Assembly: GCA_016872555.1 (NCBI GenBank) | Contig: VGZO01000014.1 | Coordinates: forward strand, 4,834 to 68,833 | Origin: Planctomycetota bacterium | Lineage (GTDB): Bacteria > Planctomycetota > Planctomycetia > Pirellulales > UBA1268 | Length of the DNA: 64,000 bases | Reading direction: 5' to 3' | Shown: in pieces, positions 3,108-23,550 of the stretch | Layout of the letters: every line of letters begins with the position of its first letter | How positions within the stretch are numbered: position 1 is the stretch's first letter | Notes under the pieces: generated by a model | Told to the model about the DNA's origin: nothing | Databases searched by the model: none | What the model saw: the letters and a program-made list of their open reading frames with translations, nothing else | Translations under genes and position numbers: made by a program

Positions 3108-3141
3108 CGGCCGGGCTCGTTCCGGCGACAATCGGCAGGCG

Positions 3142-6067: not shown

Positions 6068-6210
6068 GGTGGACGCCGGGCGGTGAGGACGACGGGACGG
6101 CAGGCACGACCCGCCCGACCGCTCCGGGATCCTAACGGAGGGGGGACGGCGAATGAAGCGGCACCGGCGGTTTGGGGATCCTGGCGTGGACAGCCGTGGA
6201 TCGCCGGTCG

Positions 6211-7809: not shown

Positions 7810-8146
7810 AAGGTCACCGGGAAAGCTGGCGGAAGCGGCGGGAACACCCGAGCCCCAAACTACAGCCGGAGGGCGGGCTCTGCGACGGAGAACCGTGGCG
7901 GCCGGCCACGCCCTCTCGAGGGCCGCCTTGCGGGCAGCGGCGGCCCGAGGCAGGGCGGACCGACGAGCCGTCGGGCCGCAACGCTGTCGCGGTGCCTGCA
8001 GAGCATCCTGCCGCCATGCGGTAAGACACTTCCAGGGAGGGGCTCGGCAAGCTACCTTCGGTCGCACATCGGCCGGGCCGAGGCCTGGCACGATTCGGAA
8101 GGTCCGGTATTCTCCGCTCCGTCGGACCGCCACTCGAAGGCACGGA

Positions 8147-9388: not shown

Positions 9389-9398
9389 CGGCAGCACG

Positions 9399-9956
9399 AT
9401 GGCGACCTCCGCCGGCGTCCGGTTTCCCGCCGCCGTGTTCCTCGACCGCGACGGCACGCTCATCGAAGACCGCCACTACCTCGCCGATCCGGCCGGCGTG
9501 GCGATCCTTCCCGGCGTGCCCGAGGCGCTCGGCCGGCTCCGCGCCGGCGGCTCGCGGCTGTTCCTGTTCACCAACCAGTCGGGGGTGGGGCGGGGTTACT
9601 TCACGCTCGCCGACGTCGCCGCGGTGAACGCCCGGATGGTCGAGCTGCTCGGCCTCGGAGCCGACCCGTTCACCGCGGTGTGCATCGCACCGGAGCGACC
9701 CGACGAGCCGTCGGTGTACCGTAAGCCTTCGCCGCGTTTCATCACCGAGATGCTCGCCCGCCACGCGCTCGATCCGACGGCGGCGTGGATGATCGGCGAT
9801 GCACCGAGCGACTGGGAGGCGGGGATCGCCGCCGGGATTCGCGCGGCGGCGATCGTGGCTGATCCCGCCGCAGACCGCCACCGCGCCCGCCGGGAGGAGC
9901 TCGGCGTCGCCGCCCATCCCGGCCTGCTCGACTGGTTGCAGGCGGTCGTTCGCTGA
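9399..9956 (+). CDS. gmhB: D-glycero-D-manno-heptose 1,7-bisphosphate phosphatase (HAD-IIIA)
   Basis: AVFLDRDGTLIED (DxDGT), LFLFTNQSGVGRGYF, YRKPSPRF and MIGDAPSDWEAG are the GmhB/histidinol-phosphatase-family motifs. The gene sits directly after the GT9 gene. Confidence 0.8.
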   Translation: MATSAGVRFPAAVFLDRDGTLIEDRHYLADPAGVAILPGVPEALGRLRAGGSRLFLFTNQSGVGRGYFTLADVAAVNARMVELLGLGADPFTAVCIAPERPDEPSVYRKPSPRFITEMLARHALDPTAAWMIGDAPSDWEAGIAAGIRAAAIVADPAADRHRARREELGVAAHPGLLDWLQAVVR

Positions 9957-9984
9957 GCGGGCCGCGCCGTCTGCGGCTGCACGA

Positions 9985-11853
9985 TCAGGGGGTTTCAGGG
10001 GCCGGTCCGTCGCCGTCGGCGCGGAGGACGATGCAGGCCAGATCACCGGTCGAGTTGCGGAGCGGCGCGGCGGTGTAGCCGAGCTCGACGAGCGCCTCTT
10101 CGAGGCCCCGGCCGCGGTCGGGGAAACCGTTGCGGTTGACGTAGATCGCCGCGAAGCCGAGACGCCTCAGTTCATCGACGGCCGCCCGGGCGTTGCCCCG
10201 GTTGATGCGGATCACCCCCGCCTGCTGGTCGATCGTCGCCCCCTCGAAGAGCTTCGCCTGGAGCGCCGGCTGCCACTTCTCGCGCTCCCGGCCCTTCATC
10301 GAGCCGAACGAATAGCGGAGGTTTTTGGTGAACAGGTAGGGGCGGAAGTGGTCGTACGGCGGCACGCCGGGGATCGGTGCTTCGGGAAAGTCCATCACGG
10401 GTAGCTGGAACACCATCGCCCCGGGAGGTAGCGCCGCCTCCATCGTGGCGGCAAACTCACGGTCGCCATCGACGGCGCGGGTGATCACGGATGCTTCCTC
10501 GGCGGTCGGTGCCCGGGGAATCTGGTCCGCGACGATCACCAGGCAGGTCACCGCGGCCGCAGCAAGCACGCGCCAGTCTGCCGTGTCACCGGATGGCCCT
10601 CGGGACGCAGTCCGTTGCCGTGCTGACAAAGCTCGCGCCGCCCACAACAGCGTGATCGCCAGGATCACGACGCTGTATCGGCAGCCGCCGCGGAACATCG
10701 TGAAACCGGTCGTGGCTGCGAACAGTGCATTCAGACCGCCGGTGGTGAACATCAGCACCAACCACAGGACCTGCCAGGCCTCCATCGGCACCTGCTTCTC
10801 GCGGCCGCTGACCATGTCGCGGACGGCGGTGGCGACCAGCGCGACCAGGCAGGCCAGGCCGACGATCCCCTGGTATGACGCCCCCTCGTCGAGCAGTGGG
10901 GCGACCTGGCGGTGGGCCGTGGCGAAGTTCGCCAGCGCGTCCCAGCGGTGTGTCAGCGGCGGGATGAACAGGTCCTTGACCTTCAGCCCGTAGATCTCGA
11001 GCCACTTGTATTCACGGACCAACGCCCCGCTGTTGGAACCGTTGGCGAGCCTGTAGGTCCAGGTGTCGACGTTCATCAGGGCGAAAGCGAGCGCCGCCGC
11101 CCCGATCACCGCCAGGGCGGCCAGCAGCGGTGGCCACCGCCGGGTGCGGAGAAACTGCAAGCCGGCGCCGAGGAGGGTGAGTTGGCACAAGGCATTGGTG
11201 AAGTAGGGGTTGTGGAGGCCGGTCAGGAATCCGATCCCACAGGCGACCCAGAACCGCCGCGACCCGGGGGCGATACCCGGCTCCGTCGACACCCAGCGCC
11301 ACACGGGGAGGAACAGCGGCACCTGCCAGACCCAGGCGCAGGTGATGTGGTACGGCGACTGGGCGAAGATGAACGGGCAGACGCCGAAGGCGAGGGCTGC
11401 CGTGAACGCCCATGGCAGGGTGCAGTCCGAGACCCGGGCGACGGCGTAGAACACCAGCGCCGCGAGGACATGGCCCGCGACCATCGCCAGGTTGAGTCCG
11501 GCGAACAGTCCGAACAGCCGGGCGAGCAGGCCGAACACGGCGACCTGCAATTCCTCGACCAGCGGCCAGTCGTTCCAGTTGGCCGCGTGAGGAGCACCGA
11601 GATCTGCCGCCTGCTTCCAGGCCAGCGGCCACCACTCCCCGTTGGCCGCCATCTTCATCATGGCCAGGGCATGGATGACGTCCGATTTCTCCGGTTCGAG
11701 ATACGCGGTCGGTCGCGACAGTGCCCCCGCCGACCAGACGCCGTTTGCCGAACACCATGCGATGCCGACGATGAAGATCAGGAGGGCGAACGGCCCCCAC
11801 GTCAGCAGCGAGTTCTCGGCTCGATTGTTCGCCATGGCTGCAGGTCTGCCCAT
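9985..11853 (-). CDS. large polytopic membrane protein with a C-terminal soluble domain (possible GT-C-type transferase; function unknown)
   Basis: 622-aa ORF. It has roughly 11 hydrophobic segments over the first ~400 aa, then a ~200-aa hydrophilic domain (PPYDHFRPYLFTKNLRYSFGSMKGREREKW...). Composition is coding-like and I recognise no family motif with confidence. Confidence 0.6.
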   Translation of the reverse strand: MGRPAAMANNRAENSLLTWGPFALLIFIVGIAWCSANGVWSAGALSRPTAYLEPEKSDVIHALAMMKMAANGEWWPLAWKQAADLGAPHAANWNDWPLVEELQVAVFGLLARLFGLFAGLNLAMVAGHVLAALVFYAVARVSDCTLPWAFTAALAFGVCPFIFAQSPYHITCAWVWQVPLFLPVWRWVSTEPGIAPGSRRFWVACGIGFLTGLHNPYFTNALCQLTLLGAGLQFLRTRRWPPLLAALAVIGAAALAFALMNVDTWTYRLANGSNSGALVREYKWLEIYGLKVKDLFIPPLTHRWDALANFATAHRQVAPLLDEGASYQGIVGLACLVALVATAVRDMVSGREKQVPMEAWQVLWLVLMFTTGGLNALFAATTGFTMFRGGCRYSVVILAITLLWAARALSARQRTASRGPSGDTADWRVLAAAAVTCLVIVADQIPRAPTAEEASVITRAVDGDREFAATMEAALPPGAMVFQLPVMDFPEAPIPGVPPYDHFRPYLFTKNLRYSFGSMKGREREKWQPALQAKLFEGATIDQQAGVIRINRGNARAAVDELRRLGFAAIYVNRNGFPDRGRGLEEALVELGYTAAPLRNSTGDLACIVLRADGDGPAPETP

Positions 11854-11953
11854 ACGTCATTCAGGAAATGATGGACCGGGAGCGTAACGCACGTCAGCGC
11901 CACAGTCGTTCGATCCCGTCGGCGACATGTGCCGCAAACCGAATCGAGCAGGT

Positions 11954-12430
11954 CTAGCTCGGCGACACGGCGTTGAGCACGTGCATCGATCGCTCATCCC
12001 CTTCGAGCACGAAGTCCATTTCAAGCTTGCGGGTGCGGGTGACGAATAGTCGGGCCCGAATGCCGGAGCGGCCCCAGCGGCGGTGGTTTTCCACGCGCAC
12101 GCCCTCCGCCATTCGGCGGCGAGCGCCACGAGGTGGACCCGGTCGTACTTTGCGAGATCTTCCCGGGCAAGCCGGCGAAAATCGAAGCCGGCAGCCGCTC
12201 GAGTCCCGCTGGGCAGCGTTTCCGCCTCGGGTAAACCGGGCTTTGACCGAGTCGGCGGTGGAGTAGATTTCCAAGTGAAAGACGCCAGAGTTGTGGCCGC
12301 TGGCTTGGTGGCCGCCGGCCAACTCGCTCACCAGCTCCGTGTCCGATGCGTCATGGTGACGGTAGCGCAAGTCGCTGGCGACGGTAATCCCGAAGATGCT
12401 GCCACCCACGACATGATGAACGGTGCTGCC
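11954..12430 (-). pseudogene. decayed remnant of an FAD-dependent L-2-hydroxyglutarate-oxidase-type gene (LhgO-like) with a large internal deletion
   Basis: The translation HHVVGGSIFGITVAS...HQASGHNSGVFHLEIYSTADSVKARF matches the LhgO N-terminus (dinucleotide fold, [24 protein letters not shown]). It is then joined to SGIRARLF...LEMDFVLEGDERSMHVLNAVSPS, which matches the LhgO C-terminus (GVRAQ...DDFLF...IHTCNAPSPAAT). About 150 codons remain where I recall ~420 for intact E. coli LhgO, and a stop follows directly after NAVSPS. Confidence 0.5.
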
Positions 12431-12474
12431 GGTTCGTACGACTGGAACTTAACACAACCCGGAGAACGGCCGCG

Positions 12475-13134
12475 ATGGGCGTGGAAATCGACCTGCTTGT
12501 GAATTATCCCCGGCCCGACCGAGACGTCGCGGCCCGGGCCGCGGCGAAGACGGAGGAGGACCGCGCCATCGCCCGGCGCTTCGACCGGGAGTTCTTCGAC
12601 GGCGACCGGCGGACGGGCTACGGCGGATTCTCCTACAATCCCCGATTCTGGCAGCCGACGGTCCCGGTGTTCCAGCGGCATTTCGGGCTGACCGGCGATT
12701 CGTCGATCCTCGACGTGGGCTGCGCCAAGGGATTCATGATGCACGATTTTGCGGAGTTGATCCCCGGCATCACCGTCAAGGGGATCGACGTCTCGACCTA
12801 TGCCGTTGAGAACGCGATCCCGTCCATGCGGTCCCATGTGCAGGTGGCCGACGCGCGGGCGCTCCCCTTCGCCGACCGGTCCTTCGACGTGGTGATCTCG
12901 ATCAACACCATCCATAACCTGGAGATCGACGGCGTGAAGCAGGCGCTCCAGGAGATCCAGCGGGTGCAGCGCCGCGGCGCCTTCATCACGGTCGATGCCT
13001 GGCGCGACGCCGCCGAAAAGGAGCGGATGGACGCCTGGAACCTGACCGCGAAGACCATCCTCTCCGTTTCCGGCTGGCAGGCCCTGTTCGCGGAGGTCGG
13101 CTACACCGGGGACTACTTCTGGTTCATCCCATGA
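12475..13134 (+). CDS. class I SAM-dependent methyltransferase (type common in O-antigen/glycan loci)
   Basis: ILDVGCAKGFMMHDF (motif I), FDVVISINTIHNL, and an N-terminal NYPRPDRDV...FDREFFDGDRRTGYGGFSYNPRFWQP block. GGAGA lies 9 nt upstream of the ATG. Confidence 0.85.
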   Translation: MGVEIDLLVNYPRPDRDVAARAAAKTEEDRAIARRFDREFFDGDRRTGYGGFSYNPRFWQPTVPVFQRHFGLTGDSSILDVGCAKGFMMHDFAELIPGITVKGIDVSTYAVENAIPSMRSHVQVADARALPFADRSFDVVISINTIHNLEIDGVKQALQEIQRVQRRGAFITVDAWRDAAEKERMDAWNLTAKTILSVSGWQALFAEVGYTGDYFWFIP

Positions 13135-14129
13135 CGCCAACGGTCTCCGGCCAGGACGTGCCTCGCGAGGCGTTGCTCCGGTCAATGAAGCGGTTGCGGC
13201 GCCTCGAGGAGGCGATCGCCGAACGGTATCCCGAGGGCCGGATGCGGTGCCCGGTGCACCTGTCCATCGGCCAGGAGGCGGTCAGCGCCGCCGTCGGCCT
13301 GGCGTTGCATCCGGAAGATCTGGCCGTGAGCGGGCACCGCGCGCACACGCACTACCTCGCCAAGGGCGGGTCGATGCCCCGCCTGGTCGCCGAGATCTAC
13401 GGCAAGCAATCCGGGTGCAGTCGCGGCAAGGGCGGATCCATGCACCTCGTCGACGAGGCGGCGGGATTCAAGGGAAGCACAGCGATCGTCGGCGGCACGA
13501 TCCCCGTGGGCACGGGTCTGGGGCTGTCGCTGGCGACGCGCGGCTCGCCACAGGTGGCCTGCGTATTCTTCGGCGACGCGGCCGTCGAAGAAGGCGTATT
13601 CTTTGAGTCGGTCAACTTCGCGGCCATCCGGCGCCTTCCCGTGCTCTACCTGTGCGAAAATAACTTCTACTCGGTCTACTCCCCGCTCCGCGTGCGGCAG
13701 CCGGAGGGGAGGCGAATCCACGAGATGGTCGCGGGGCTCGGCCTGTCGGCCGCGTACGGCGACGGCAACGACCCCGAACTGGTCTACCAGATGACGGGAG
13801 ATGCCCTGGCATCCATCCGGTCCGGCGCAGGCCCGGTGTTCCTCGAGTTCACGACCTATCGCTACCGCGAGCACTGCGGCCCGAATTTCGATAACGACCT
13901 GGGCTACCGCACCGAGGCCGAGTTCCTCGAGCGGCGGTCGGCCGATCCGGTGGAGACCTACGAAATGCGACTGCTCGAGTCGGGAGTCGTGACGCGGGAG
14001 TCGTTGGCCACCATGGACGCGGCCATTGCGGCGGAGGTGGCTGACGCCTTTGCCTTCGCGGAAGCGTCGCCGTTTCCCGACCGGTCCGAGGCCTTCAGCG
14101 ACCTGTACGTGGGGGAGGACGGCGCGTGA
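13131..14129 (+). CDS. ThDP-dependent 2-oxoacid/acetoin dehydrogenase E1 component, alpha subunit
   Basis: HLSIGQEAVSAAVG, GKGGSMHL, GGTIPVGTGLGL, FFGDAAVEEGVFFESVNFAAIRRLPVLYLCENNFYS (the ThDP GDG-N motif region). The ATG overlaps the upstream stop (ATGA). Confidence 0.9.
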   Translation: MTPTVSGQDVPREALLRSMKRLRRLEEAIAERYPEGRMRCPVHLSIGQEAVSAAVGLALHPEDLAVSGHRAHTHYLAKGGSMPRLVAEIYGKQSGCSRGKGGSMHLVDEAAGFKGSTAIVGGTIPVGTGLGLSLATRGSPQVACVFFGDAAVEEGVFFESVNFAAIRRLPVLYLCENNFYSVYSPLRVRQPEGRRIHEMVAGLGLSAAYGDGNDPELVYQMTGDALASIRSGAGPVFLEFTTYRYREHCGPNFDNDLGYRTEAEFLERRSADPVETYEMRLLESGVVTRESLATMDAAIAAEVADAFAFAEASPFPDRSEAFSDLYVGEDGA

Positions 14130-15187
14130 CGCGGGTGCGCAGCTATGCGGCGGCGATCGCCGAGGCCACCGCCATCGCCATGGAGATCGACGAGCGGATC
14201 CTCTGTTTCGGTCTCGGCGTGGATGATCCCAAGCGGATTTTCGGGACCACCGCAGGGCTCGTGGAACGGTTCGGGCCCCGCCGCGTGTTCGACATGCCGA
14301 CCTCGGAAGCGGCCATGACGGGGGTGGCGATCGGCGCGTCGCTCGACGGCGCCCGCTGCCTGATGACGCACCAGCGGCTCGATTTCTTCCTGCTCACGCT
14401 CGACCAGATCGTCAATAACGCGGCGAAATGGCGGTACATGTTCGGGGGCCAGGCCGCGCCGGTGAGGATCGTGGTGCGGCTCATCCTGGGCCGGGGATGG
14501 GGGCAGGGGCCGACGCACTCGCAGAACCTGCAGGCGTGGTTCGCCCACATTCCGGGACTGAAGGTGGTCATGCCGGCCTCCCCGGCCGATGCCAAGGGCC
14601 TGCTCTTGTCGGCGCTCTTCGACGACAATCCGGTGCTCTTCCTGGAGCATCGCTGGTTGCACCAGATGCAGGGGGAACTTCCCGAGGGGGACCACCGGGT
14701 GCCGATCGGGAAGGCCGCCGTGGTGGCGGAAGGCAGCGACCTGACGATCGTCACGATGTCCTCCATGACCGTCGAAACGCTGCACGCGTTGCCTGCCCTG
14801 CAGGAGGCTGGTATCTCGGCCGAGGTGATCGATCTGCGGTCGATCCGGCCGCTCGACCTCGACACAGTGCTGGCCTCGGTGCGGAAGACCGGTCGGCTGC
14901 TCGCCGTGGATACGGCGAGCCCGGTGTGCTCGGTGGCCAGCGAGATCGTGGCCACGGCGGCCTGCGAATGCTTCGACCGGCTCGAGGGGCCGCCGCGGCG
15001 GCTGGCATTGCCCGACTTTCCGGTGCCGACGAGCCCGGCCCTGACCGACGGCTTCTATCCGCGGGCGGAGCAGATTGCCGTGGCCGCGGCCGGGATGCTC
15101 GGCCGCACGGTGGACGTCGCGGAGATCGTCGCCTCGCGGACGTCGCCGCACGACGTGCCGGGCGATTGGTTCAAGGGGCCGTTCTAA
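14126..15187 (+). CDS. ThDP-dependent dehydrogenase E1 component, beta subunit
   Basis: FGLGVDDPKRIFGTTAGLVERFGPRRVFDMPTSEAAMTGVAIGASLDG, DQIVNNAAKWRYMFGG, IDLRSIRPLD. The GTG start overlaps the alpha-subunit stop (GTGA). Confidence 0.9.
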   Translation: MTRVRSYAAAIAEATAIAMEIDERILCFGLGVDDPKRIFGTTAGLVERFGPRRVFDMPTSEAAMTGVAIGASLDGARCLMTHQRLDFFLLTLDQIVNNAAKWRYMFGGQAAPVRIVVRLILGRGWGQGPTHSQNLQAWFAHIPGLKVVMPASPADAKGLLLSALFDDNPVLFLEHRWLHQMQGELPEGDHRVPIGKAAVVAEGSDLTIVTMSSMTVETLHALPALQEAGISAEVIDLRSIRPLDLDTVLASVRKTGRLLAVDTASPVCSVASEIVATAACECFDRLEGPPRRLALPDFPVPTSPALTDGFYPRAEQIAVAAAGMLGRTVDVAEIVASRTSPHDVPGDWFKGPF

Positions 15188-15199
15188 GGAGCATTTTCG

Positions 15200-16075
15200 A
15201 TGACCGCTGAAGGACTTATAGAGGCTTCAGAGACGCTCGGTTCAATGCTCACGGCGCTGCCGGACATGATGGCCATGCACGCGCCCGGAACGCCGACCTA
15301 TCAGTTCCTCAATGTGGTGGCACGGCACGCGGTTGCCCGGGCATTTTCGTCGGTCGATCCGCCGGCGGTAGAGTTTGGCGAGTTCGGCCGCATCGTGTTC
15401 CCGTTTCGCCGCATGGGTGCGATCACGTCGCTTGACCTGTTCGGCCTGGACGAACTGGTGATTTTCGGGTTTTACCTGCGTCAGCGTGGCCGATACCGGA
15501 GGGTACTCGACGTCGGTGCCAACGTTGGGCTGCATTCGCTGCTACTGTCCCGCTGCGGTTTCGAGGTGAATTGCTTCGAGCCCGATCCCCTGACGTGCGC
15601 TGCGCTGCGGCGCACCCTGTCCGCGAACGACTGTCGGACGGTGCATGTGCATGAGGCGGCAGTCTCGTCGCAGACGGGGACCACGGAGTTCGTCCGGGTG
15701 TTGGGCAATACGACTGGCAGCCACGTCGCGGGCGCAAAGAAGCAACCGTATGGCGACCTCGAGCGGCTGGTCGTCAAGACCGTCGCGATCGGCGAACTCC
15801 TGGCGGATGTCGACTTCATGAAGCTCGACGCTGAGGGTCACGAGGCCGACATACTCTGCTGCACGACCGCGCAGCACTGGGCCGGCACGGAGGCGATCGT
15901 GGAGATCGGAAGCCCCGAGAACGCGGTGGCCGTCCATCGACACATGACGGGGCTTGGTGTAAGCCTGTTCGCGCAGCAGCGGGGCTGGCATCGCGTCGAT
16001 ACTGTCGCGGACATGCCACGGTCCTACCACGACGGCTCCGTCTTCATCTCGAACAACAAGGTCATGCCATGGTAA
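15200..16075 (+). CDS. FkbM-family methyltransferase
   Basis: VLDVGANVGLHSLLLSRCGFEVNCFEPDP...VHVHEAAVSSQTGTTEF...VDFMKLDAEGHE is the characteristic FkbM pattern. Confidence 0.85.
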   Translation: MTAEGLIEASETLGSMLTALPDMMAMHAPGTPTYQFLNVVARHAVARAFSSVDPPAVEFGEFGRIVFPFRRMGAITSLDLFGLDELVIFGFYLRQRGRYRRVLDVGANVGLHSLLLSRCGFEVNCFEPDPLTCAALRRTLSANDCRTVHVHEAAVSSQTGTTEFVRVLGNTTGSHVAGAKKQPYGDLERLVVKTVAIGELLADVDFMKLDAEGHEADILCCTTAQHWAGTEAIVEIGSPENAVAVHRHMTGLGVSLFAQQRGWHRVDTVADMPRSYHDGSVFISNNKVMPW

Positions 16076-16884
16076 ATTGCATCCCAGAGGTGTTCATCGC
16101 GGGTGCCAATGCTGACATCGGCAATGCACTGCTAAGGAACTTCGCAGCCGACGGATGGCGCGTGGGCGGCACATATCGAAACACAAGCCCAGAACTGACA
16201 GGAGCGCCAGACTCCGCAGAACCCTTCTTCATCGCCTGCGATTTTTCGCTGCCCGGATTCGCGGGCGAAGTCGCTGAACGTTATACGTCAGCGGGCCGCG
16301 AGTGGGACGTCTTCATTTCGGCGGTCGGCACGATGCTGCCTGTCGGACCCTTCATGGAGACACCGTTCGCCGACTGGGAGCAAGGGCTGCGGGTCAATCT
16401 GTTGTCACAGCTCGAGTTGGTCCACAGCCTCTATCCGTACCGCCGTCCCGACAAAGTCGCGCATGTGGTCTTGCTGGCCGGTGGCGGCACAAACGGCCCG
16501 TTTCGCAACTACTCCGCCTACTGTCTGTCGAAGATCGGCCTGATCAAGGCCTGCGAACTGCTCGACGACGAGTGCGCTGACCTGAATGCGTTCATTGTGG
16601 GCCCGGGCTGGGTGCGGACGAAGATTCACGCCGAGACGCTCGTGAGCGGTGCTCGCGCAGGGGAGAATCAGGCGCGGACGCGCGACTTCCTCGACTCGGG
16701 CGATTCGGGAACGGCCCACGACGTCATCTATCGGTGCATCCGGTGGGGCATCGAGGCCGGGCGGGAGGTCGCCGGAGGCCGCAACTTTTCGGTGGTTCAC
16801 GACCCGTGGAGAGAGGCCGGATTCTCAGCACGATTGAAGGCCGATGGTAATCTCTGCAAACTGCGGAGGAGTAATCCACAGTGA
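16069..16884 (+). CDS. short-chain dehydrogenase/reductase (SDR)
   Basis: VFIAGANADIGNAL (glycine-rich NAD(P) motif) and YSAYCLSKIGL (YxxxK). The start overlaps the FkbM gene end by 7 nt. Confidence 0.8.
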   Translation: MVNCIPEVFIAGANADIGNALLRNFAADGWRVGGTYRNTSPELTGAPDSAEPFFIACDFSLPGFAGEVAERYTSAGREWDVFISAVGTMLPVGPFMETPFADWEQGLRVNLLSQLELVHSLYPYRRPDKVAHVVLLAGGGTNGPFRNYSAYCLSKIGLIKACELLDDECADLNAFIVGPGWVRTKIHAETLVSGARAGENQARTRDFLDSGDSGTAHDVIYRCIRWGIEAGREVAGGRNFSVVHDPWREAGFSARLKADGNLCKLRRSNPQ

Positions 16885-16921
16885 TCGTTCGAAAGCGAGG
16901 CCGGCGTCCGGGAGTCATCGC

Positions 16922-18709
16922 ATGAAGCTTTCCGACTACGTTGCCGCGTTCCTCGCCCAACAGGGCATCCGACACGCCTTCGCCATCGCTGGCGGAGCCT
17001 GCCTGCATCTGATCGACTCAATCGCCGCCCGCACCGACATCGCCTACGTGTGTCCGCATCACGAACAGGCGGCGGCGATGGCCGCGGACGCATATTCCCG
17101 CGTCTCGGAGCGGCCTGGGGTGGCTATCACGACGAGCGGCCCCGGAGCGACGAATCTGATCACGGGCATTTGTTGTGCCTACTACGATTCCGTGCCGGTA
17201 CTCTTCATCACCGGCCAGGTCGCGACGTTTCGCCTCAAGCAGGACACGGGCGTGCGGCAGTTCGGCTTCCAAGAGACCGACATCGTCGGCATGTGTCGTT
17301 CCGTGACCAAGTATGCCGTGATGGTGGAGGATCCGCTGAGGATTCGCTACGAACTCGAAAAGGCGGTGGCCCTGGCCACCTCGGGCCGGCCCGGGCCGGT
17401 ACTGGTCGATATCCCGGACGACCTGCAGCGTCGCGACATCGACCCGGGAACGTTGGAAGGTTACTCGCCGCCACCGCCGGCTTCTTCGTCGGCCAACCAT
17501 GCCGGTCAGGCCCGGGAGGCGCTTGCGTTGCTACGCCGTGCCCGCAGGCCGATCGTGATCCTCGGCTGGGGTATCCATCTCGCGAATGCCGCTGCGGATG
17601 CGGTGACCTTCTTGCGCCTTAGCGGGCTGCCCGTCGTGCCAACCTGGGGGGCCATCGATCTCGTCGCCCACACGCCGGACAACTTCGTCGGCACCTTTGG
17701 GCTACATGGAACGCGATACGGCAACTTCGCGGTGCAAAACTCCGACTGCATCCTGGCGATCGGTACCAGGCTCGATACCCACGAAACGGGAAGCCCTTTG
17801 AGCAGCTTCGCGCGCGAGGCTCGGAAAATCATCGTTGACATCGACCGCGCTGAACTCACCAAGTTCCCGAGATTCGGAATGCCGGTCGATCTACCCATCG
17901 AGGCGGACGCCGGAGATTTCCTCCGCGCCCTGTCGTTGGAACTCCCGCAGGCAGAAATGCCCGACATCACGCCATGGCGGCTGCAGATCGCCGAATGGCA
18001 GAGGGAGTTCGAAATCTGTCCTGCTAGCAACTTTAACGAGCCCACGCCGAACCCCTATGCAGCGATCAAGGCCCTTTCACGGGCCGCGGCCGCCGATGGC
18101 ACCGTCGTGATCGACACGGGCTGCGTGATCGCATGGTTCATGCAGGCCTGGGAGCCACGGCCTGGTCAGCGGATATTCAGCGCCCTCAACAACACACCCA
18201 TGGGATACGCGCTTCCCGGCGCAATCGGCGCTAGCTTCGCGCTCGATCGTGCGACGGTACTCTGCCTGATCGGCGACGGCGGGTTGATGATGAACATTCA
18301 GGAACTCGCGACCATCATGCACCACGCCCTACCAATCAAGATCATCGTGTTCAACAACCGTGGATACAGCATGATCCAGCAGACACAGGATCAGTGGCTT
18401 GGATCCCGCTACCATGCTTCCTCGAAGGACGGCGGGTTGTCGTTTCCAGACTTCGTCGAGGTTGCAAGAGCGCATGGTATCCCGGCCGCGAGAATAGACA
18501 GGAGTGTGACGATGCCCGACGTAATAGCTCAGGCCCTGGCCCACGACGGGCCGTTCCTTTGTGATCTGACACTTGATCCGGCTGAGCGGGTGGTTCCGCA
18601 GGTCGTGTACGGACGGCCAATCGAGGATGCGGGGCCCTTGCTGAGTCGAGACCTGTTTCTGCGAAACATGCTTGTGAAGCCGCTTGATATCTCTCTGCTG
18701 GGTGAGTGA
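16922..18709 (+). CDS. acetolactate-synthase-like ThDP-binding enzyme (three-domain IlvB/AlsS/YerE family)
   Basis: HHEQAAAMAADAYSRVSERPGVAITTSGPGATNLITGICCAYYDSVPVLFITGQV, FQETDIVGM, and the C-terminal ThDP motif LIGDGGLMMNIQELATI...IIVFNNRGYSMI. The ATG at 16922 is in frame with the track ORF. Confidence 0.9.
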   Translation: MKLSDYVAAFLAQQGIRHAFAIAGGACLHLIDSIAARTDIAYVCPHHEQAAAMAADAYSRVSERPGVAITTSGPGATNLITGICCAYYDSVPVLFITGQVATFRLKQDTGVRQFGFQETDIVGMCRSVTKYAVMVEDPLRIRYELEKAVALATSGRPGPVLVDIPDDLQRRDIDPGTLEGYSPPPPASSSANHAGQAREALALLRRARRPIVILGWGIHLANAAADAVTFLRLSGLPVVPTWGAIDLVAHTPDNFVGTFGLHGTRYGNFAVQNSDCILAIGTRLDTHETGSPLSSFAREARKIIVDIDRAELTKFPRFGMPVDLPIEADAGDFLRALSLELPQAEMPDITPWRLQIAEWQREFEICPASNFNEPTPNPYAAIKALSRAAAADGTVVIDTGCVIAWFMQAWEPRPGQRIFSALNNTPMGYALPGAIGASFALDRATVLCLIGDGGLMMNIQELATIMHHALPIKIIVFNNRGYSMIQQTQDQWLGSRYHASSKDGGLSFPDFVEVARAHGIPAARIDRSVTMPDVIAQALAHDGPFLCDLTLDPAERVVPQVVYGRPIEDAGPLLSRDLFLRNMLVKPLDISLLGE

Positions 18710-18710
18710 C

Positions 18711-19757
18711 ATGCGTGGTGTCGTTCTTACACGTCCGGGAGGCGACCTCGAGATTGCGACCGATCTCGAATTTCCGGAGCCTATGCATGGCCAGGTAAGC
18801 GTGCAGGTGGCGTTCAGCGGGGTGTGCCACAGCCAGCTCATGGAGGCCCGCGGGCTGCGCGGCGAGGATCGCTACGTGCCCCACCTGCTCGGACACGAGG
18901 GCACTGGTGTAGTCCGAGCGATCGGCTCCGGCGTAACAAAGGTAGCGGCCGGCGACCGGGTGGTGCTGACCTGGATCAAAGGCGAAGGATTGGACGTCGG
19001 CGGCGGCCGTTACGGCTGGAATGGACGCCGCGTCAATGCCGGCGCGGTGACGACGTTCAACGAGGTGGCCGTTGTCGCCGAGAATCGGGTCGTACGGCTG
19101 CCGGCCGGCGTTCCCATGGATGTTGGTGTGCTCCTCGGCTGCGCGTTGCCGACGGGTGCGGGTGTCGTCTGCAATACCCTCCAGCCGGAGCCAGGGCGAA
19201 CGCTGGTCGTTTACGGCCTAGGTGGCGTGGGTATTTGCGCGCTGGCGGCTGCGAGTCGTTACGGCCTGAAGCGACTGATCGCTGTCGATGTCGAGCCGGG
19301 CAAGCTGTCATTAGCGCATGATTTCGGAGCGACCGACGTCATTGACGCGTCCCGCGAGGAGCCGGTCGAGGTCATTCGCGGGCTCACTGACGGGCGGGGC
19401 GCGGACTACGCTGTGGAGGCGGCCGGCGGCACCGCAACCATCGAGCGCGCGTTCTCATCGGTTTGTGATGATGGCGGCCGATGCGTGTTCGCCTCCCATC
19501 CGCCCGCAGGGAAGCGAATCTGCCTCGATCCGCACGCATTGATTCGAGGCCGCCGGATTGAGGGCAGTTGGGGCGGGGGGTGCTTGCCCGACCGGGACAT
19601 CCCACTCCTGGCAAGCCTGTGCCTCGACCCCGGGCTGCCCTTCCGTTCGCTGGTCCGCGACCGATACCCGCTTGCCGAGGTAAACCGGGCGCTCGCCGAC
19701 CTCGAGACACGTCGGGCCATGCGGCCGCTTCTGGTGGTCGCCCCCGAGCTAGAGTAA
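18711..19757 (+). CDS. zinc-dependent medium-chain alcohol dehydrogenase/reductase
   Basis: SGVCHSQL, LGHEGTGVV and GDRVVL (zinc ligands), then GLGGVGICALAAA (Rossmann fold). It starts 2 nt after the ALS-like stop. Confidence 0.88.
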   Translation: MRGVVLTRPGGDLEIATDLEFPEPMHGQVSVQVAFSGVCHSQLMEARGLRGEDRYVPHLLGHEGTGVVRAIGSGVTKVAAGDRVVLTWIKGEGLDVGGGRYGWNGRRVNAGAVTTFNEVAVVAENRVVRLPAGVPMDVGVLLGCALPTGAGVVCNTLQPEPGRTLVVYGLGGVGICALAAASRYGLKRLIAVDVEPGKLSLAHDFGATDVIDASREEPVEVIRGLTDGRGADYAVEAAGGTATIERAFSSVCDDGGRCVFASHPPAGKRICLDPHALIRGRRIEGSWGGGCLPDRDIPLLASLCLDPGLPFRSLVRDRYPLAEVNRALADLETRRAMRPLLVVAPELE

Positions 19758-19761
19758 AGGT

Positions 19762-20487
19762 TCACATAACGCGATGCGGCCGCTTCGCGAACTCCCTACG
19801 ACGGGCGAACTTGATCTCGTAGACGAGTCGCAGGTAGGAGCGCACCACCTCTGTGAGGTTGCGGAGTGACAGTGACGTGCTCCCCGCGAGCCCCTTCTGC
19901 ATGTACCCTGCCACCTCGTAATAGCTAGCACCCGAGCAGAGCAACTTGATCGTCGCCTCGACCACGATGCTGAAGCGATTCGCTCGCAAATTGATACGGC
20001 GGAGCCTGTCCGTGGGATAGACGCACGGGCCATTAATGTACTGCACGTAGATACCGAACGTGATCATGTAGATCGCCCCGAAGATCAGGGAGATCACGTT
20101 CCGCGCGACTCCCCTCGCCTCCTTGTTTACGAAGTAGCTCAACACCATATCGGCCCGGTAGGCGTTCTTGAACAGGGCGCAGAGCAGGTCGAGTGAGATG
20201 TCGTTGTCACCTGGAACGATGAGAAAACGGTCGCACGTGGCGATCGCCAAGGCATCGCGAAAGCCGGTGCCCAACCCCTGGTTGGTCGCGTGCTCGACCA
20301 CCGTCACGTTTGCCATGCGGCTGGCAAAATCGGCGGCGATCGCGCCGGTTGCATCTCGGCTGCCGTCGTTCACGATGATGATCTGCAGGTCCGTGCAGCC
20401 GGCCCTGCCGGCCGCGGCCATGACGGTGTCTACGGTCGCCGCCAAATTGGCGGCCTCGTTGAACGCCGGAATGAACACAGAAATCAC
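19762..20487 (-). CDS. GT2 glycosyltransferase of the polyprenol-phosphate (Dpm1/ArnC/GtrB-like) type
   Basis: ISVFIPAFNEAANL, IIIVNDGSRDAT, LIVPGDNDISL, followed by a hydrophobic stretch VISLIFGAIYMITFGIYV. The GTG start overlaps the upstream stop (GTGA). Confidence 0.85.
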   Translation of the reverse strand: MISVFIPAFNEAANLAATVDTVMAAAGRAGCTDLQIIIVNDGSRDATGAIAADFASRMANVTVVEHATNQGLGTGFRDALAIATCDRFLIVPGDNDISLDLLCALFKNAYRADMVLSYFVNKEARGVARNVISLIFGAIYMITFGIYVQYINGPCVYPTDRLRRINLRANRFSIVVEATIKLLCSGASYYEVAGYMQKGLAGSTSLSLRNLTEVVRSYLRLVYEIKFARRREFAKRPHRVM

Positions 20488-20996
20488 GCTCCTGCCCCCA
20501 GCATGACCCGCTTGGCCAAGCGGAACAGTTTGGCGACGTAGAGCATCCGCCTGCGCCCGGTGTAATAGCGGCCATCCTCGTACGTCAGTTGGCCGCTGCG
20601 GGTAAGCCGCCCGAGTCGGATGTCGAGGATCTTGGCGGCGTCGTAGAACTGTAGGATCTCGGGCTCGCTAAGTGGTCCGCGGGCGGCGAGCTCCTGCAAG
20701 ATCCTGATGCGGACGGACGCCTCGGGGATGTGGACGAGGTGGAAGAAGACATATGAGGCGGATGCATAGGTGAGAAATGCGGCCGCAACGGTCGCAGCCC
20801 TTTCGGTGGCAGGCAGGGCTGATCCGCAGACGACCGACGCCATGATGAACGCCACGCAACCGAGGACGAAACTGCCGGCCAGGCTGCGGACGATGCTCGT
20901 GCAAAGGCGGGTACGGAGCAGGATCACGTTGGTCGCTACGTTGACGACGAACGCAATCCATGGAAACGCCGGCAGATACCAGCCGCAGGAAAGCAT
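20484..20996 (-). CDS. small membrane protein with a C-terminal winged-helix-like domain (paralog A; unknown function)
   Basis: 170 aa. It has three hydrophobic segments, then SVRIRILQELAARGPLSEPEIL...RLGRLTRSGQLTYEDGRYYTGRRR. The architecture is shared with the next gene. Confidence 0.6.
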   Translation of the reverse strand: MLSCGWYLPAFPWIAFVVNVATNVILLRTRLCTSIVRSLAGSFVLGCVAFIMASVVCGSALPATERAATVAAAFLTYASASYVFFHLVHIPEASVRIRILQELAARGPLSEPEILQFYDAAKILDIRLGRLTRSGQLTYEDGRYYTGRRRMLYVAKLFRLAKRVMLGAGA

Positions 20997-21014
20997 GAAG
21001 AGACTTCTCTCCTG

Positions 21015-21512
21015 TCAGCCGGCCAAGCCCCGGCGGCCTACAAGGCGGTGGTACGACAAGAATCCGTGGAGGAACTTTCGGCCTCTGGCCGTAATCCGCA
21101 GCCGCCCATCAGCACGTTCCACCAGGCCATCAAGTTCAAGGCCCCGAGCGCGATTAAGCACGAACTTATCATCGTTGATGATGGCGGCCAGATCGTCCCG
21201 GCTGGCCCCGTCACCACCCCGCTCGTCAACGCACGTCACGATCAGTGAGGAGGGGCTCTCGGATTCCAAGGCAGGCAACGATATCAGATAACTGGCCACC
21301 ATGGTGCAAAAAAGGAGCCAAGCCGCGGTCAAGTCTGCGGCGGCCGGGGCAGGGCAACGCGCGCGCGCTGCCCAGACACCGACCGCTGCTCCTAGGAGCG
21401 CCGCGAGCGGCACCAGCCGCGCCGGACTACGCGGCCGCAGCATGCGCCAAGCGGCCACATGGATGGCGACGGTCGCCAGCAGGCCGATAATCGGGGCAAG
21501 GAGCGAAAACAC
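21015..21512 (-). CDS. small membrane protein with a C-terminal winged-helix-like domain (paralog B; unknown function)
   Basis: 165 aa. It has three hydrophobic segments, then SPSSLIVTCV...SRDDLAAII...RARGLELDGLVERADGRLRITARGR. It has the same layout as paralog A. Confidence 0.6.
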   Translation of the reverse strand: MFSLLAPIIGLLATVAIHVAAWRMLRPRSPARLVPLAALLGAAVGVWAARARCPAPAAADLTAAWLLFCTMVASYLISLPALESESPSSLIVTCVDERGGDGASRDDLAAIINDDKFVLNRARGLELDGLVERADGRLRITARGRKFLHGFLSYHRLVGRRGLAG

Positions 21513-21527: not shown

Positions 21528-22526
21528 TTACAACTTATGAACGTAGTCTGCGGGAATCATCCGCAGCCGGTCGAGGTTGATCTTCATCCAGTCGATCGTT
21601 TCACCGATTACGTCGGCCACCGTGAGCTTCGGCTCCCAGCCGAACTCGCCGCGGGCCTTCGTGCAGTCGAGCAGATAGGCCGGATCCTGGGCGAGCCGCG
21701 GCGGCGTGGACTCGACGGCGTCGTCGAACCGTGCCCCGAGCTGCCGGCAGATCTCCTCGACGACCTCGCGGATCGTCTGGTTGGTGCCGGTGGCGAGGTG
21801 GTAGACGTCGCCGGCGATCCCCCGACGGGCCACGGCGAGCGTGCCCCGGGCGACGTCGGCCATGTGGATGAAGGAGCGGACGCTCGTGCCACCCCCTTCG
21901 AGCTTGAGCCGGCGCCCCGTGAGGATGCAGAACACCGTCCGGGGGATGATCCGGTACAGCGGCTGTCCTGGCCCGCAGACGTTGGCCGCCCGCGTGAACG
22001 CGACGGGGAAGCCGTAGGCCTTCCGGTAGGCCTGGAGGTTCATGTCGCAGGCCGCCTTCGACACGGCGTAGGGGGTGCTCGGGTTGAACGGCGCCGTTTC
22101 CTTCACCAGGCCGCTCGTGCTGCCGTAGACCTCGGGGGTAGAGATCTGGACGAACTTCTTGAGAAACTCGGCCTTCTTCAGCCGGTCGACCAGCCGGGCC
22201 GTGGCGACGACGTTGGTCTGGTACCAGTGCTCGGGATGGTCCCAGCTCTGGGCGACCATGCTCTGTGCGGCGAAGTTGATGACGTAGTCCGGCCGGGCCG
22301 CGTCGATCACGGCGCCGATGCCCTCGAGATCACGGTTGAAATCGAGGGCGTGGAACGTGAACCACTCGTGCGGTGCCCACCGGTAGGGGAGGAGCGCTTC
22401 GTCGGGCTCCGCGGAGCGGCTGATCCCGATCACCCGTGCGCCGTCGGCGAGCGCCTCGGCCACGAAGGTGGCGCCGGAGAACGAGTTGCTCCCGAGGACG
22501 ACGAAGGTTTCGGACGGCGGGGCCAT
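21528..22526 (-). CDS. NDP-sugar 4,6-dehydratase-type extended SDR
   Basis: VVLGSNSFSGATFV (NAD fold), ISTPEVYGS and YAVSKAACD (the S/T-Y-K catalytic set laid out as in RfbB-type dehydratases), NVCGPGQ. Confidence 0.85.
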   Translation of the reverse strand: MAPPSETFVVLGSNSFSGATFVAEALADGARVIGISRSAEPDEALLPYRWAPHEWFTFHALDFNRDLEGIGAVIDAARPDYVINFAAQSMVAQSWDHPEHWYQTNVVATARLVDRLKKAEFLKKFVQISTPEVYGSTSGLVKETAPFNPSTPYAVSKAACDMNLQAYRKAYGFPVAFTRAANVCGPGQPLYRIIPRTVFCILTGRRLKLEGGGTSVRSFIHMADVARGTLAVARRGIAGDVYHLATGTNQTIREVVEEICRQLGARFDDAVESTPPRLAQDPAYLLDCTKARGEFGWEPKLTVADVIGETIDWMKINLDRLRMIPADYVHKL

Positions 22527-22530
22527 GGGC

Positions 22531-23550
22531 TCACTTCAGGTGGATGGCCTTCATCGTCTTGATGTTGGAATACCTGGTGTCGGTCATCGAGTCGGGGAGC
22601 TTGCCGGCCTTGAAGGCCCGGATCAGGTCGCGGGCCCCGTCTTCGACGGTGTGCCGCGGCGTAAAGCCGAGCACCCGGCGGATCTTGTCGGAGTTGATCC
22701 GGTAGGAGCGGATATCGTCCGACGGGGTGGTGACGATCTCGATCTCCCCCTTCTCCGGCATCTCCTCGCGGACCACGTTCCGCACCACCTCGGCCGTCTC
22801 GGCGACGGAATAATTCTGGTAGCCGGCGTTGAAAATCTGGCCGGCGATCGTGTCGTCGGGCGCCTCGAGGAGGAGGCAGTACAGGTCGACCATGTCCTGC
22901 ATGTGGAGGTTGGGCCGCATCTGCACGCCGCCGAACACCGTGATCCGGCCGTTGTTGACCGCGTGATTGGTGAGGATGTTGACCGTCAGGTCGAGTCGCT
23001 GGCGTGGCGAGTAGCCGCAGATCGTCGCCGGTCGCACGGCGACCGTGGTGAACGACGGCGCTTGCTCGGCCAGCAGCAGCGGCTCACAGGCGGCCTTGTA
23101 CTTGTTGTAGAGCGACACCGGTACCAGCGCGTGCTCTTCGGTGACCTGAGGCGAGTCGCTGACGCCGTAGACGCTCCCCGAGGAGGCGAAGACGAACCGG
23201 CGGACCCCCGCCGCCTTCGCCGCCTTCACGGTCGGGCCGAAGGAGTCGAGATTCACCGACTTGGAAAGGTCGGGGTCGAGTTCGACGCTCGGGTCGTTGG
23301 AGATGCAGGCCAGGTGGATGACCGCATCAACGCCGCGGACGGCCCGCTGCACCGCTTCGTCATCGCGGACGTCGCCCGCGATGATCTCGAGCCGCGGATG
23401 GCCAGCGACGGCCGCCAGGGCCTCCGCACCGTAGATGAACAGATCGAACACACGGACGCGGTAGTCGAGCTCGAGGAGCCGCGGCACGAGCACCGCCCCC
23501 ACGTATCCCGCGCCGCCGATCACCGCCACGCTGTCGAAACGCCGTGCCAC
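22531..23550 (-). CDS. NAD-dependent NDP-sugar epimerase/reductase (extended SDR)
   Basis: VAVIGGAGYVGAVLV, FASSGSVYG, YNKYKAACE (YxxxK), RPATICG. It starts 4 nt before the dehydratase gene. Confidence 0.88.
   Translation of the reverse strand: MARRFDSVAVIGGAGYVGAVLVPRLLELDYRVRVFDLFIYGAEALAAVAGHPRLEIIAGDVRDDEAVQRAVRGVDAVIHLACISNDPSVELDPDLSKSVNLDSFGPTVKAAKAAGVRRFVFASSGSVYGVSDSPQVTEEHALVPVSLYNKYKAACEPLLLAEQAPSFTTVAVRPATICGYSPRQRLDLTVNILTNHAVNNGRITVFGGVQMRPNLHMQDMVDLYCLLLEAPDDTIAGQIFNAGYQNYSVAETAEVVRNVVREEMPEKGEIEIVTTPSDDIRSYRINSDKIRRVLGFTPRHTVEDGARDLIRAFKAGKLPDSMTDTRYSNIKTMKAIHLK

Follow-up and report, generated by a model that had tools for sequence, protein, structure and literature searches.

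A widespread gene cassette uniting two thiamine diphosphate enzyme systems, and its proposed role in making a branched surface sugar

Introduction

Two thiamine diphosphate (ThDP) enzyme systems, two methyltransferases and two reductases are encoded side by side in a planctomycete operon, and the question raised by this locus is what such a combination makes. The operon occupies positions 12475-19757 of a 64-kb stretch of contig VGZO01000014.1, referred to here as the window. Proteins of the two ThDP kinds carry labels such as “acetolactate synthase” and “pyruvate/acetoin dehydrogenase” in public databases. We propose, with a probability of about 0.6, that the seven genes are the tailoring core for a C-branched (or C2-extended), methylated higher sugar built on a nucleotide carrier. 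The product is probably an elaborate, undescribed cell-surface sugar, and the operon is one instance of a mobile cassette with a wide distribution. Both YerE-like enzymes and stand-alone E1 pairs transfer acyl-anion equivalents from 2-oxo acids to keto-sugar nucleotides, and the side-chain ketone is afterwards reduced, methylated or otherwise modified (PMC9306805, PMC12247030, PMC4753412).

The seven open reading frames (ORFs) were defined by ORF listing and translation together with Pfam and NCBIfam, and all of them lie on the + strand and are tightly coupled (lengths in amino acids, aa).

12475-13134, + strand: MT1, class-I S-adenosylmethionine-dependent methyltransferase, 219 aa (Pfam Methyltransf_25/11)
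13131-14129, + strand: stand-alone ThDP E1-alpha subunit, 332 aa (E1_dh PF00676, E=7e-58)
14126-15187, + strand: E1-beta subunit, 353 aa (Transket_pyr PF02779 and Transketolase_C PF02780)
15200-16075, + strand: FkbM-family methyltransferase, 291 aa (Methyltransf_21; TIGR01444 at 78 bits, above the cut-off of 37.7)
16069-16884, + strand: classical short-chain dehydrogenase/reductase (SDR), 271 aa, presumed branch ketoreductase (adh_short, adh_short_C2)
16922-18709, + strand: YerE/JanthE-like ThDP carboligase of the decarboxylase (acetohydroxyacid synthase-like) superfamily, 595 aa (TPP_enzyme_N/M/C)
18711-19757, + strand: Zn-dependent medium-chain dehydrogenase (ADH), 348 aa, presumed second ketoreductase (ADH_N and ADH_zinc_N; catalytic Cys/His/Cys ligands readable in the sequence)

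Neighboring genes overlap at three junctions, namely an ATGA at 13131 (MT1/E1-alpha), a GTGA at 14126 (E1-alpha/E1-beta) and 7 nt at 16069-16075 (FkbM/SDR), and are otherwise separated by 12 nt at 15188-15199 (E1-beta/FkbM), 37 nt at 16885-16921 (SDR/YerE-like) and 1 nt at 18710 (YerE-like/ADH). Identical metagenome contigs, with gene calls made independently, have the 595-aa ThDP enzyme and the 348-aa ADH starting at the same positions. A preliminary description of this DNA had presented the same seven genes as one coupled operon, and its genes and junctions are as it gave them. An Rfam scan returned neither a thiamine pyrophosphate riboswitch nor any other RNA, and scans for sigma-70 promoters and terminators performed no better than on shuffled sequence.

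Distribution of the cassette

Comparison with other genomes provides the strongest view of which genes belong together. One genome per GTDB species was scanned, which yielded 370 relatives of the 595-aa ThDP enzyme, and the best 80 loci were taken. A set of 84 loci, many of them truncated, was compared by tblastn with the window proteins and by all-against-all ORF clustering; 43 of them, with at least 8 kb on either side of the YerE-like ortholog, form a fully flanked subset. The three contexts sampled first, i.e. a related planctomycete, a 10.1-Mb planctomycete chromosome and a deltaproteobacterial metagenome-assembled genome, share one gene set, and this set surrounds the orthologs in about 70 of the 84 loci. 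The YerE-like gene is found in 83 loci, the SDR in 70, MT1 in 64, Epi/DH genes in 62 (usually as a pair), E1-beta in 60, E1-alpha in 54, FkbM in 50, an HldE-like gene in 48, ADH in 43 and SIS/GmhA-like genes in 27, with a family 2 glycosyltransferase (GT2) in some. Within the 43 fully flanked loci the counts are 39 for MT1, 38 for SDR, 37 for E1-alpha, 35 for Epi/DH, 33 for HldE-like and 21 for ADH.

The loci span about 20 bacterial and archaeal phyla. Bacterial carriers include Planctomycetota, Bdellovibrionota, Pseudomonadota, Chloroflexota, Nitrospirota, Desulfobacterota, Verrucomicrobiota, Omnitrophota, Acidobacteriota, Elusimicrobiota, Bacteroidota, Lentisphaerota, Campylobacterota, Cyanobacteria (including Prochlorococcus and Phormidium) and Patescibacteria, and the archaeal carriers are Methanoregula, Woesearchaeota and Pacearchaeota. 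Cultured carriers are represented by the planctomycete locus L009, by Phormidium sp. FACHB-1136 (L083) and by Polynucleobacter sp. IMCC 30228 (L078). Recurrence around orthologs in unrelated phyla puts the operon arrangement far beyond chance. The cassette is no peculiarity of this planctomycete; it is a horizontally spread unit. A search of plasmids found no cassette copy, only true ilvG at 34-36% identity. One deltaproteobacterial locus (L010, 1511-21788) carries three acetolactate synthase (ALS)-like ThDP paralogs, a TAL/FSA transaldolase-family gene and a radical-SAM gene, a content that hints at more elaborate products or a longer sugar backbone.

The two ThDP enzyme systems

The 595-aa ThDP enzyme falls below every curated cut-off among the NCBIfam models for acetohydroxyacid synthase (AHAS), AlsS, Gcl and related enzymes. 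The best AHAS model, TIGR00118, gives 413 bits against a cut-off of 538, and the AlsS model NF006378 gives 239 bits against 510. Among solved structures the enzyme ranks JanthE first (8rph, 372 bits), followed by plant AHAS (at most 305 bits), the PpYerE-type 5ahk (292 bits) and AlsS structures (139-163 bits). JanthE is a published YerE-like carboligase that joins 2-oxo acids to ketones. The window enzyme and JanthE have in common the motif GY-x-MI-x-x-TQ, where Salmonella IlvG reads GM-V-R-Q-W with W464; the position of the Trp that sets substrate specificity in AHAS is a Thr in the window enzyme. An alignment of the family has the ThDP-binding residues GDG 451-453 (G451-D452-G453) and NN 478-479 as invariant, and the window enzyme keeps the canonical GDG where JanthE has CDG. 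Homologs number in the thousands, are 50-60% identical across phyla and form a tight clade of their own.

Two conventional identities were considered for this enzyme and rejected. A biosynthetic AHAS large subunit (IlvB/IlvG/IlvI) does not fit the missed cut-offs, the Trp-to-Thr change and the lack of an ACT-type small subunit and of any ilv gene. A catabolic AlsS does not fit the model and structure scores or the lack of AlsD, E2 and E3. Pfam scans of the sizeable ORFs in the window found no ilvN, ilvC-type or AlsD gene, in keeping with the preliminary description of an ALS-like enzyme that has neither a small subunit nor ilv or als neighbors. The gene stands beside candidates for keto-sugar-nucleotide-forming enzymes and a side-chain reductase, as is the case for known YerE-like enzymes. 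Sequence comparison, by a modest margin, and setting suggest that the protein behaves as a YerE-like carboligase, and acceptance of ketones is predicted.

The second system is the E1 pair. E1-alpha reaches 275 bits with TIGR03182 (cut-off 394) and E1-beta 278 bits with NF006667 (cut-off 321). The best PDB match of E1-alpha is human pyruvate dehydrogenase E1-alpha at 174 bits, and its ThDP motif GDAAxxEG...NN can be read in the sequence. The same Pfam scans found no E2 or E3, neither in the sizeable ORFs of the window nor as a recurrent gene across the 84 loci, so that the pair stands alone, as had been described. An identity as PdhA/PdhB was rejected; both subunits miss the equivalog cut-offs and the window holds no E2 or E3. 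By its domains and its sugar-tailoring context the pair resembles the stand-alone, sugar-branching E1 enzymes (alpha-KADH2, AviB1/AviB2 type), of which it is a candidate member. Across the 84 loci E1-alpha and E1-beta are always paired, usually with MT1 directly before them.

The domain families of the operon are identical to those of an acetoin/2,3-butanediol or branched-chain amino-acid gene set (AcoA/B, AlsS or IlvB, BudC and BdhA), and public annotations agree with that reading. It would be strengthened, according to the preliminary description, by AcoC, AcoL or AlsD partners and by orthologous operons that never stand beside sugar-nucleotide genes. AcoC, AcoL and AlsD were not found among the sizeable ORFs of the window and do not recur in the 84 loci, and the same holds for E2, E3, IlvN and IlvC. 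Sugar-nucleotide genes accompany most of the fully flanked orthologs (see the Epi/DH and HldE-like counts above), and the linkage to methyltransferases and nucleotide-sugar genes is constant. Together with the missed AlsS and AHAS cut-offs and an identity to IlvG of about 35%, this leaves an acetoin or amino-acid role barely credible. The earlier proposal of a sugar pathway is supported by the sugar-nucleotide linkage, the missed cut-offs and JanthE as the best solved relative.

Sugar-activation genes and heptose clues

A sugar-nucleotide gene set converges on the operon, and a further phosphatase gene lies on its other side.

21528-22526, - strand: RmlB-like extended SDR, 332 aa (TIGR01181 at 198 bits, cut-off 365; best PDB match 6bi4)
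22531-23550, - strand: second extended SDR, 339 aa (best PDB match 6vo6, E=2.6e-35)
23576-25105, - strand: HldE-like fusion, 509 aa, with an N-terminal nucleotidyltransferase and a C-terminal PfkB kinase (PF01467 and PF00294)
9399-9956, + strand: GmhB-like HAD phosphatase, 185 aa (NF006506 at 93.8, below the cut-off of 178; TIGR01656 above its cut-off)
7895-9388, + strand: GT9 heptosyltransferase-family protein (PF01075)

The RmlB-like SDR has a dTDP-glucose 4,6-dehydratase (6bi4) as its best PDB match, and was previously labelled a 4,6-dehydratase. It keeps the Tyr-x3-Lys (YAVSK) and the Glu of RmlB. Across the cassette family its motif is S-[ST]-P-E-V-Y-G (STPEVYG in the window), where RmlB has S-T-D-E-V-Y-G, i.e. 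a Pro replaces the catalytic Asp. In dTDP-glucose 4,6-dehydratase this Asp protonates the leaving group. Dehydratase activity is therefore not assured and the reaction is uncertain; an identity as an RmlB equivalog was rejected on the motif and on the TIGR01181 score.

The 339-aa protein, which had been called an epimerase, is more closely described as an extended SDR with 6vo6 as its nearest structure. We take 6vo6 to be Cj1427 of C. jejuni (an unconfirmed PDB assignment). Cj1427 functions as a GDP-heptose C4-dehydrogenase (PMC10680097). The HldE-like fusion scores 109 bits for rfaE domain II and 100 bits for domain I, both below cut-off, and its PDB matches are weak. A true HldE was rejected since the domain order is reversed and NF008454 gives 163 bits against 521. 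The protein is thus related to HldE but not an equivalog, so that heptose is suggested as the substrate and not established. Taken as sequence clues, the two rfaE domains, the GmhB-like phosphatase, the SIS_2 genes of other loci and the 6vo6 match of the second SDR suggest a heptose-type sugar. The GmhB-like gene is syntenic in L007, L011 and L091. The GT9 gene is restricted to the loci of the nearest relatives (L001, L003 and L011) and may be a general gene of the lipopolysaccharide (LPS) core outside the cassette.

Delivery genes

Between the activation genes and the operon lie three more genes on the - strand, and a fourth lies upstream of MT1.

19762-20487, - strand: GT2 glycosyltransferase, 241 aa (PF00535), convergent with ADH, the two stop codons 4 nt apart
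20484-20996, - strand: small membrane protein, 170 aa, about three transmembrane helices and a soluble tail (hydropathy; no Pfam match)
21015-21512, - strand: second small membrane protein, 165 aa, of the same architecture (hydropathy; no Pfam match)
9985-11853, - strand: GT-C-fold membrane glycosyltransferase, 622 aa, about ten transmembrane helices (no Pfam match; AlphaFold2 and Foldseek)

The convergent gene set had been noted previously and is real, with the second small membrane protein as an addition that was missed. The GT2 cluster (c16) accompanies the cassette in 16 loci. Homologs of the 170-aa protein adjoin GT2 in L007, L011, L013, L032, L043, L057 and L087, and the 165-aa protein is 53% identical to a 165-aa ORF of L007. 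The two proteins look like paralogs, with about three N-terminal transmembrane helices and an 80-aa soluble tail, and stand beside GT2 in several phyla; they could be flippase subunits.

The AlphaFold2 model of the 622-aa protein has a pLDDT of 80.7 and a pTM of 0.84. Foldseek matches it to AftA, STT3, ArnT, PglB and PMT at probability 1.0, with TM-scores of 0.44-0.53 for the first four, and every one of the top structural matches is a GT-C enzyme whose donor is linked to polyprenyl phosphate. The model places the protein among the GT-C enzymes, with a predicted multi-span GT-C domain and a predicted periplasmic C-terminal domain. It is syntenic in L007, L011 and L091 and belongs to a family of about 600 members, apparently confined to planctomycetes, some of which are called “phosphoglycerol transferase” in JGI records. 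A lipid-carrier route like that of ArnC/ArnT or Gtr, in which the sugar may be delivered by way of a polyprenyl-phosphate carrier, is suggested by the GT-C fold in combination with a short GT2 and a pair of small membrane proteins.

Several other features of the window were observed. The 620-bp gap between the GT-C gene and MT1 contains the remains of a gene for a DAO-family FAD oxidoreductase, in three pieces that are out of frame (11903-12382, - strand). The gene is intact (401-445 aa) at the equivalent position in L007 and L091, and the copy in the window is therefore read as a decayed pseudogene. The window also encodes an additional GT2 (3028-3927, + strand), a fragment of S-adenosylhomocysteine hydrolase at its edge (3-806, - strand) and a DUF1559/N-methyl protein. 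The latter, together with the source annotations, points to a metagenome-assembled genome of a freshwater planctomycete.

Modularity and insertion history

Across the 84 loci the genes of the operon travel in two groups. The SDR, a methyltransferase and the YerE-like gene nearly always lie next to one another; the methyltransferase slot is filled by FkbM, or by a different class-I enzyme in 12 loci. The YerE-like gene adjoins FkbM in 40 loci and SDR in 32, and FkbM adjoins SDR in 28. A fusion of SDR and FkbM, 584 aa long, is encoded in L009 (8214-9968), on the 10.1-Mb chromosome LR593886.1 of a planctomycete. E1-alpha adjoins E1-beta in 49 loci and MT1 in 20. Correlations of pairwise identity (rho) are 0.90 for E1-alpha with E1-beta, 0.52 for E1-alpha with MT1, 0.48 for YerE-like with SDR and 0.29 for YerE-like with E1-alpha.

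Each group is also found without the other. L091, from a related planctomycete, has MT1, the E1 pair, both extended SDRs and the HldE-like, GmhB and 622-aa proteins at 57-87% identity to the window, and lacks FkbM, SDR and the YerE-like gene; its ADH (39%) and GT2 (28%) are of unrelated origin to those of the window. It is one of three informative loci in a sample seeded with E1, the others being L092 and one full cassette. Conversely, L060, L036 and L068 have the SDR-methyltransferase-YerE triad and no E1 or HldE-like genes. The two ThDP systems had been described as independent, and this pattern bears that out. In L092 (16849-18548) a split transketolase (Transketolase_N and Transket_pyr/C) occurs with a methyltransferase, an ADH and a ketoreductase in a heptose-type cassette context; split-gene sugar transketolases have been reviewed as reported only from Streptomycetes. 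In L068 (Marinibaculum pumilum, 4125-14805) the triad, in the order YerE-FkbM-SDR, has a DegT aminotransferase and several GT41/TPR proteins as neighbors, which recalls the islands for protein (flagellin-type) glycosylation.

These single occurrences bear on whether one of the ThDP enzymes acts on the sugar while the other prepares its donor, e.g. by building up or trimming a functionalised 2-oxo acid or an acyloin. Such a division of labor would parallel the aldolase supply of ErwE and MMAR_2332. Some YerE-like enzymes refuse pyruvate and need donors made by their own cluster (PMC9306805), and with no aldolase here, any non-standard donor would need a different enzyme for its synthesis. The single obvious 4-keto acceptor also fits one branching step more easily. 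We nevertheless regard this as doubtful, since the E1 module occurs with the activation genes and no YerE-like enzyme in L091 and the triad occurs with no E1 in L060, L068 and L036, so that each ThDP enzyme evidently works without the other; the co-evolution of YerE and E1-alpha is weak.

Base composition divides the window genes along a similar line. GC content at third codon positions (GC3) is 0.87-0.93 for MT1, the E1 pair, the two extended SDRs and the HldE-like gene, and 0.71-0.82 for FkbM (0.78), SDR, the YerE-like gene, ADH, GT2 and both small membrane proteins. The GC3 split, the lack of the block in L091 and the low identity of the L091 ADH and GT2 together mark 15200-21512 as an inserted block. 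The simplest history is probably that this block was inserted into an E1-only cassette like that of L091.

An inserted block with its own GC3, GT2 and small membrane proteins raises the question of whether the modules serve two sugars, i.e. a branched sugar made by the FkbM-SDR-YerE-ADH-GT2 block and a separate heptose-type sugar made with the E1 module. The triad does occur in other sugar contexts, e.g. that of L068. The block, however, contains no activation or keto-forming genes, and most phyla have the E1 genes and the triad together in a co-directional series, accompanied by just one HldE-like gene and one pair of Epi/DH genes. We consider two separate sugars to be very unlikely.

Proposed sugar pathway

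The genes present, their coupling, families, conservation and modularity, and the GT-C fold are observed. For the chemistry of the tailoring core, we infer the identity of the sugar and its nucleotide, the donor acids, the positions attacked, the action of both modules on one molecule and the lipid-carrier route. The HldE-like enzyme and the GmhB-like phosphatase, with a GmhA encoded elsewhere in the genome, would make an NDP-heptose-type sugar, and the two extended SDRs would convert it to keto intermediates. Each ThDP module would then add an acyl-anion equivalent to a sugar carbonyl, in the simplest case as a hydroxyethyl unit derived from pyruvate. The modules would be the stand-alone E1 alpha/beta pair, accompanied by the class-I methyltransferase MT1, and the YerE/JanthE-like enzyme, whose companions are the SDR and the FkbM methyltransferase. 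The SDR and the Zn-dependent ADH would reduce the new side-chain ketones, and FkbM and MT1 would then cap them by methylation. GT2 may load the finished sugar onto polyprenyl phosphate, the small membrane proteins may carry it to the other side of the membrane, and the GT-C-fold protein (9985-11853) would transfer it to an envelope glycan.

In its fullest and more tentative form, the proposal has the two ThDP modules modify the same heptose-type nucleotide sugar, one after the other. This would give a chemically undescribed sugar of 11-13 carbons, doubly C-substituted and doubly methylated, installed via a lipid carrier by lineage-specific GT-C transferases. This version is possible, and clearly less secure than the general proposal of a branched or extended methylated sugar. 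If it is true, such a sugar would be found on envelopes in about 20 phyla, including Prochlorococcus, Polynucleobacter, the candidate phyla radiation (CPR), DPANN and methanogenic archaea.

At least one of the modules could instead extend the chain, adding a C2 unit to an exocyclic aldehyde to give a longer, linear higher-carbon sugar. Aldehydes are the usual acceptors of ThDP enzymes, a second ring ketone would no longer be needed, and one cassette variant has a UDP-glucose-6-dehydrogenase-like gene and a GFO/IDH/MocA oxidoreductase beside its HldE-like gene. The last two genes are missing from the window, and both families known to act on sugars, YerE-like and alpha-KADH2, target ring ketones; we judge chain extension unlikely.

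Several points weigh against the proposed branching pathway. The margin by which the ThDP enzyme is nearer to JanthE (38.7% identity) than to Salmonella IlvG (35%) is modest, and PpYerE ranks below plant AHAS in the PDB comparison. The RmlB-like enzyme is without the catalytic Asp of RmlB, and the HldE-like, GmhB-like and RmlB-like proteins all score below equivalog cut-offs. No SIS/GmhA gene was found in the window, although many other versions of the cassette have one of their own, and the assignment of ADH to one module is ambiguous. A C4 that carries a branch cannot be re-oxidised, so a second acceptor carbonyl must be postulated. The polyprenyl-phosphate route is drawn from fold and gene neighborhood, and a sequence search of the PDB with GT2 gave no informative match.

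Comparison with known systems and significance

The cassette shares features with four kinds of known system. Like the YerE-like lyases (YpYerE, ErwE, MMAR_2332, MygE and JanthE), it encodes a three-domain enzyme of ThDP/FAD-type architecture with GDG...NN, with a reductase and a methyltransferase adjoining it and nucleotide-sugar genes around it in what resembles a surface-glycan pathway. The known acceptor of those enzymes is CDP-3,6-dideoxy-4-keto-glucose, whereas the activation genes of the cassette are heptose-type; those systems lack an E1 partner and obtain long donors with aldolases, whereas the window has an E1 pair and no aldolase. Like the alpha-KADH2 enzymes (AviB1/AviB2, Pau11/Pau12, those of aldgamycin and kosinostatin, and KbDH of kibdelomycin), the E1 of the cassette is heteromeric, without E2 or E3, and adjoins sugar-nucleotide tailoring genes followed by reductase and methyltransferase genes. 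The described alpha-KADH2 enzymes belong to actinomycete antibiotic clusters, in contrast to the surface-glycan-type loci of Gram-negative bacteria, CPR and archaea that carry the cassette, where E1 is paired with a YerE-like enzyme; the likeness drawn here is in domains and context.

The GDP-heptose pathways of C. jejuni likewise combine a heptose activation set with two extended SDRs that create 4-keto intermediates, as is predicted here. There, however, tailoring of the keto group stops at epimerisation or reduction and makes no C-C bond, and separate HddA and HddC proteins and GDP are used in place of the domain-swapped HldE-like fusion. The delivery genes resemble ArnC/ArnE-F/ArnT and GtrA/B/C in that a small GT2, small membrane proteins and a GT-C-fold transferase stand beside sugar-synthesis genes, but there is no Pfam-level membership, and the small proteins, with about three transmembrane helices and a soluble tail, are unlike ArnE/F or GtrA. 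The virenose/dihydrohydroxystreptose system of Coxiella was also considered as an identity for the cassette and dropped, as a literature search gave it no support.

Literature searches found, in the papers available, no conserved combination of E1 and YerE, no system in which either kind of ThDP enzyme has a heptose-type substrate, no E1-type branching enzyme outside actinomycete secondary metabolism, and no distribution of this breadth, though earlier mention of each is possible. Both enzyme kinds are already known; what appears to be new is their combination, the heptose-type context and the breadth of the distribution. The literature consulted is divided between YerE-type enzymes, assigned to LPS sugars of Gram-negative bacteria and mycobacteria, and E1 alpha/beta-type enzymes, assigned to actinomycete antibiotics. 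The cassette unites both types with heptose-type activation and is common in uncultured, ecologically dominant lineages. If the proposal is true, thousands of database entries for “acetolactate synthase” and “pyruvate dehydrogenase E1” would be corrected, and a large natural library of ketone-accepting ThDP carboligases, which are sought for chiral tertiary alcohols, would become apparent. For the organisms themselves, the cassette would represent an unrecognised class of complex surface sugars, with relevance to phage receptors, grazing resistance and immune recognition.

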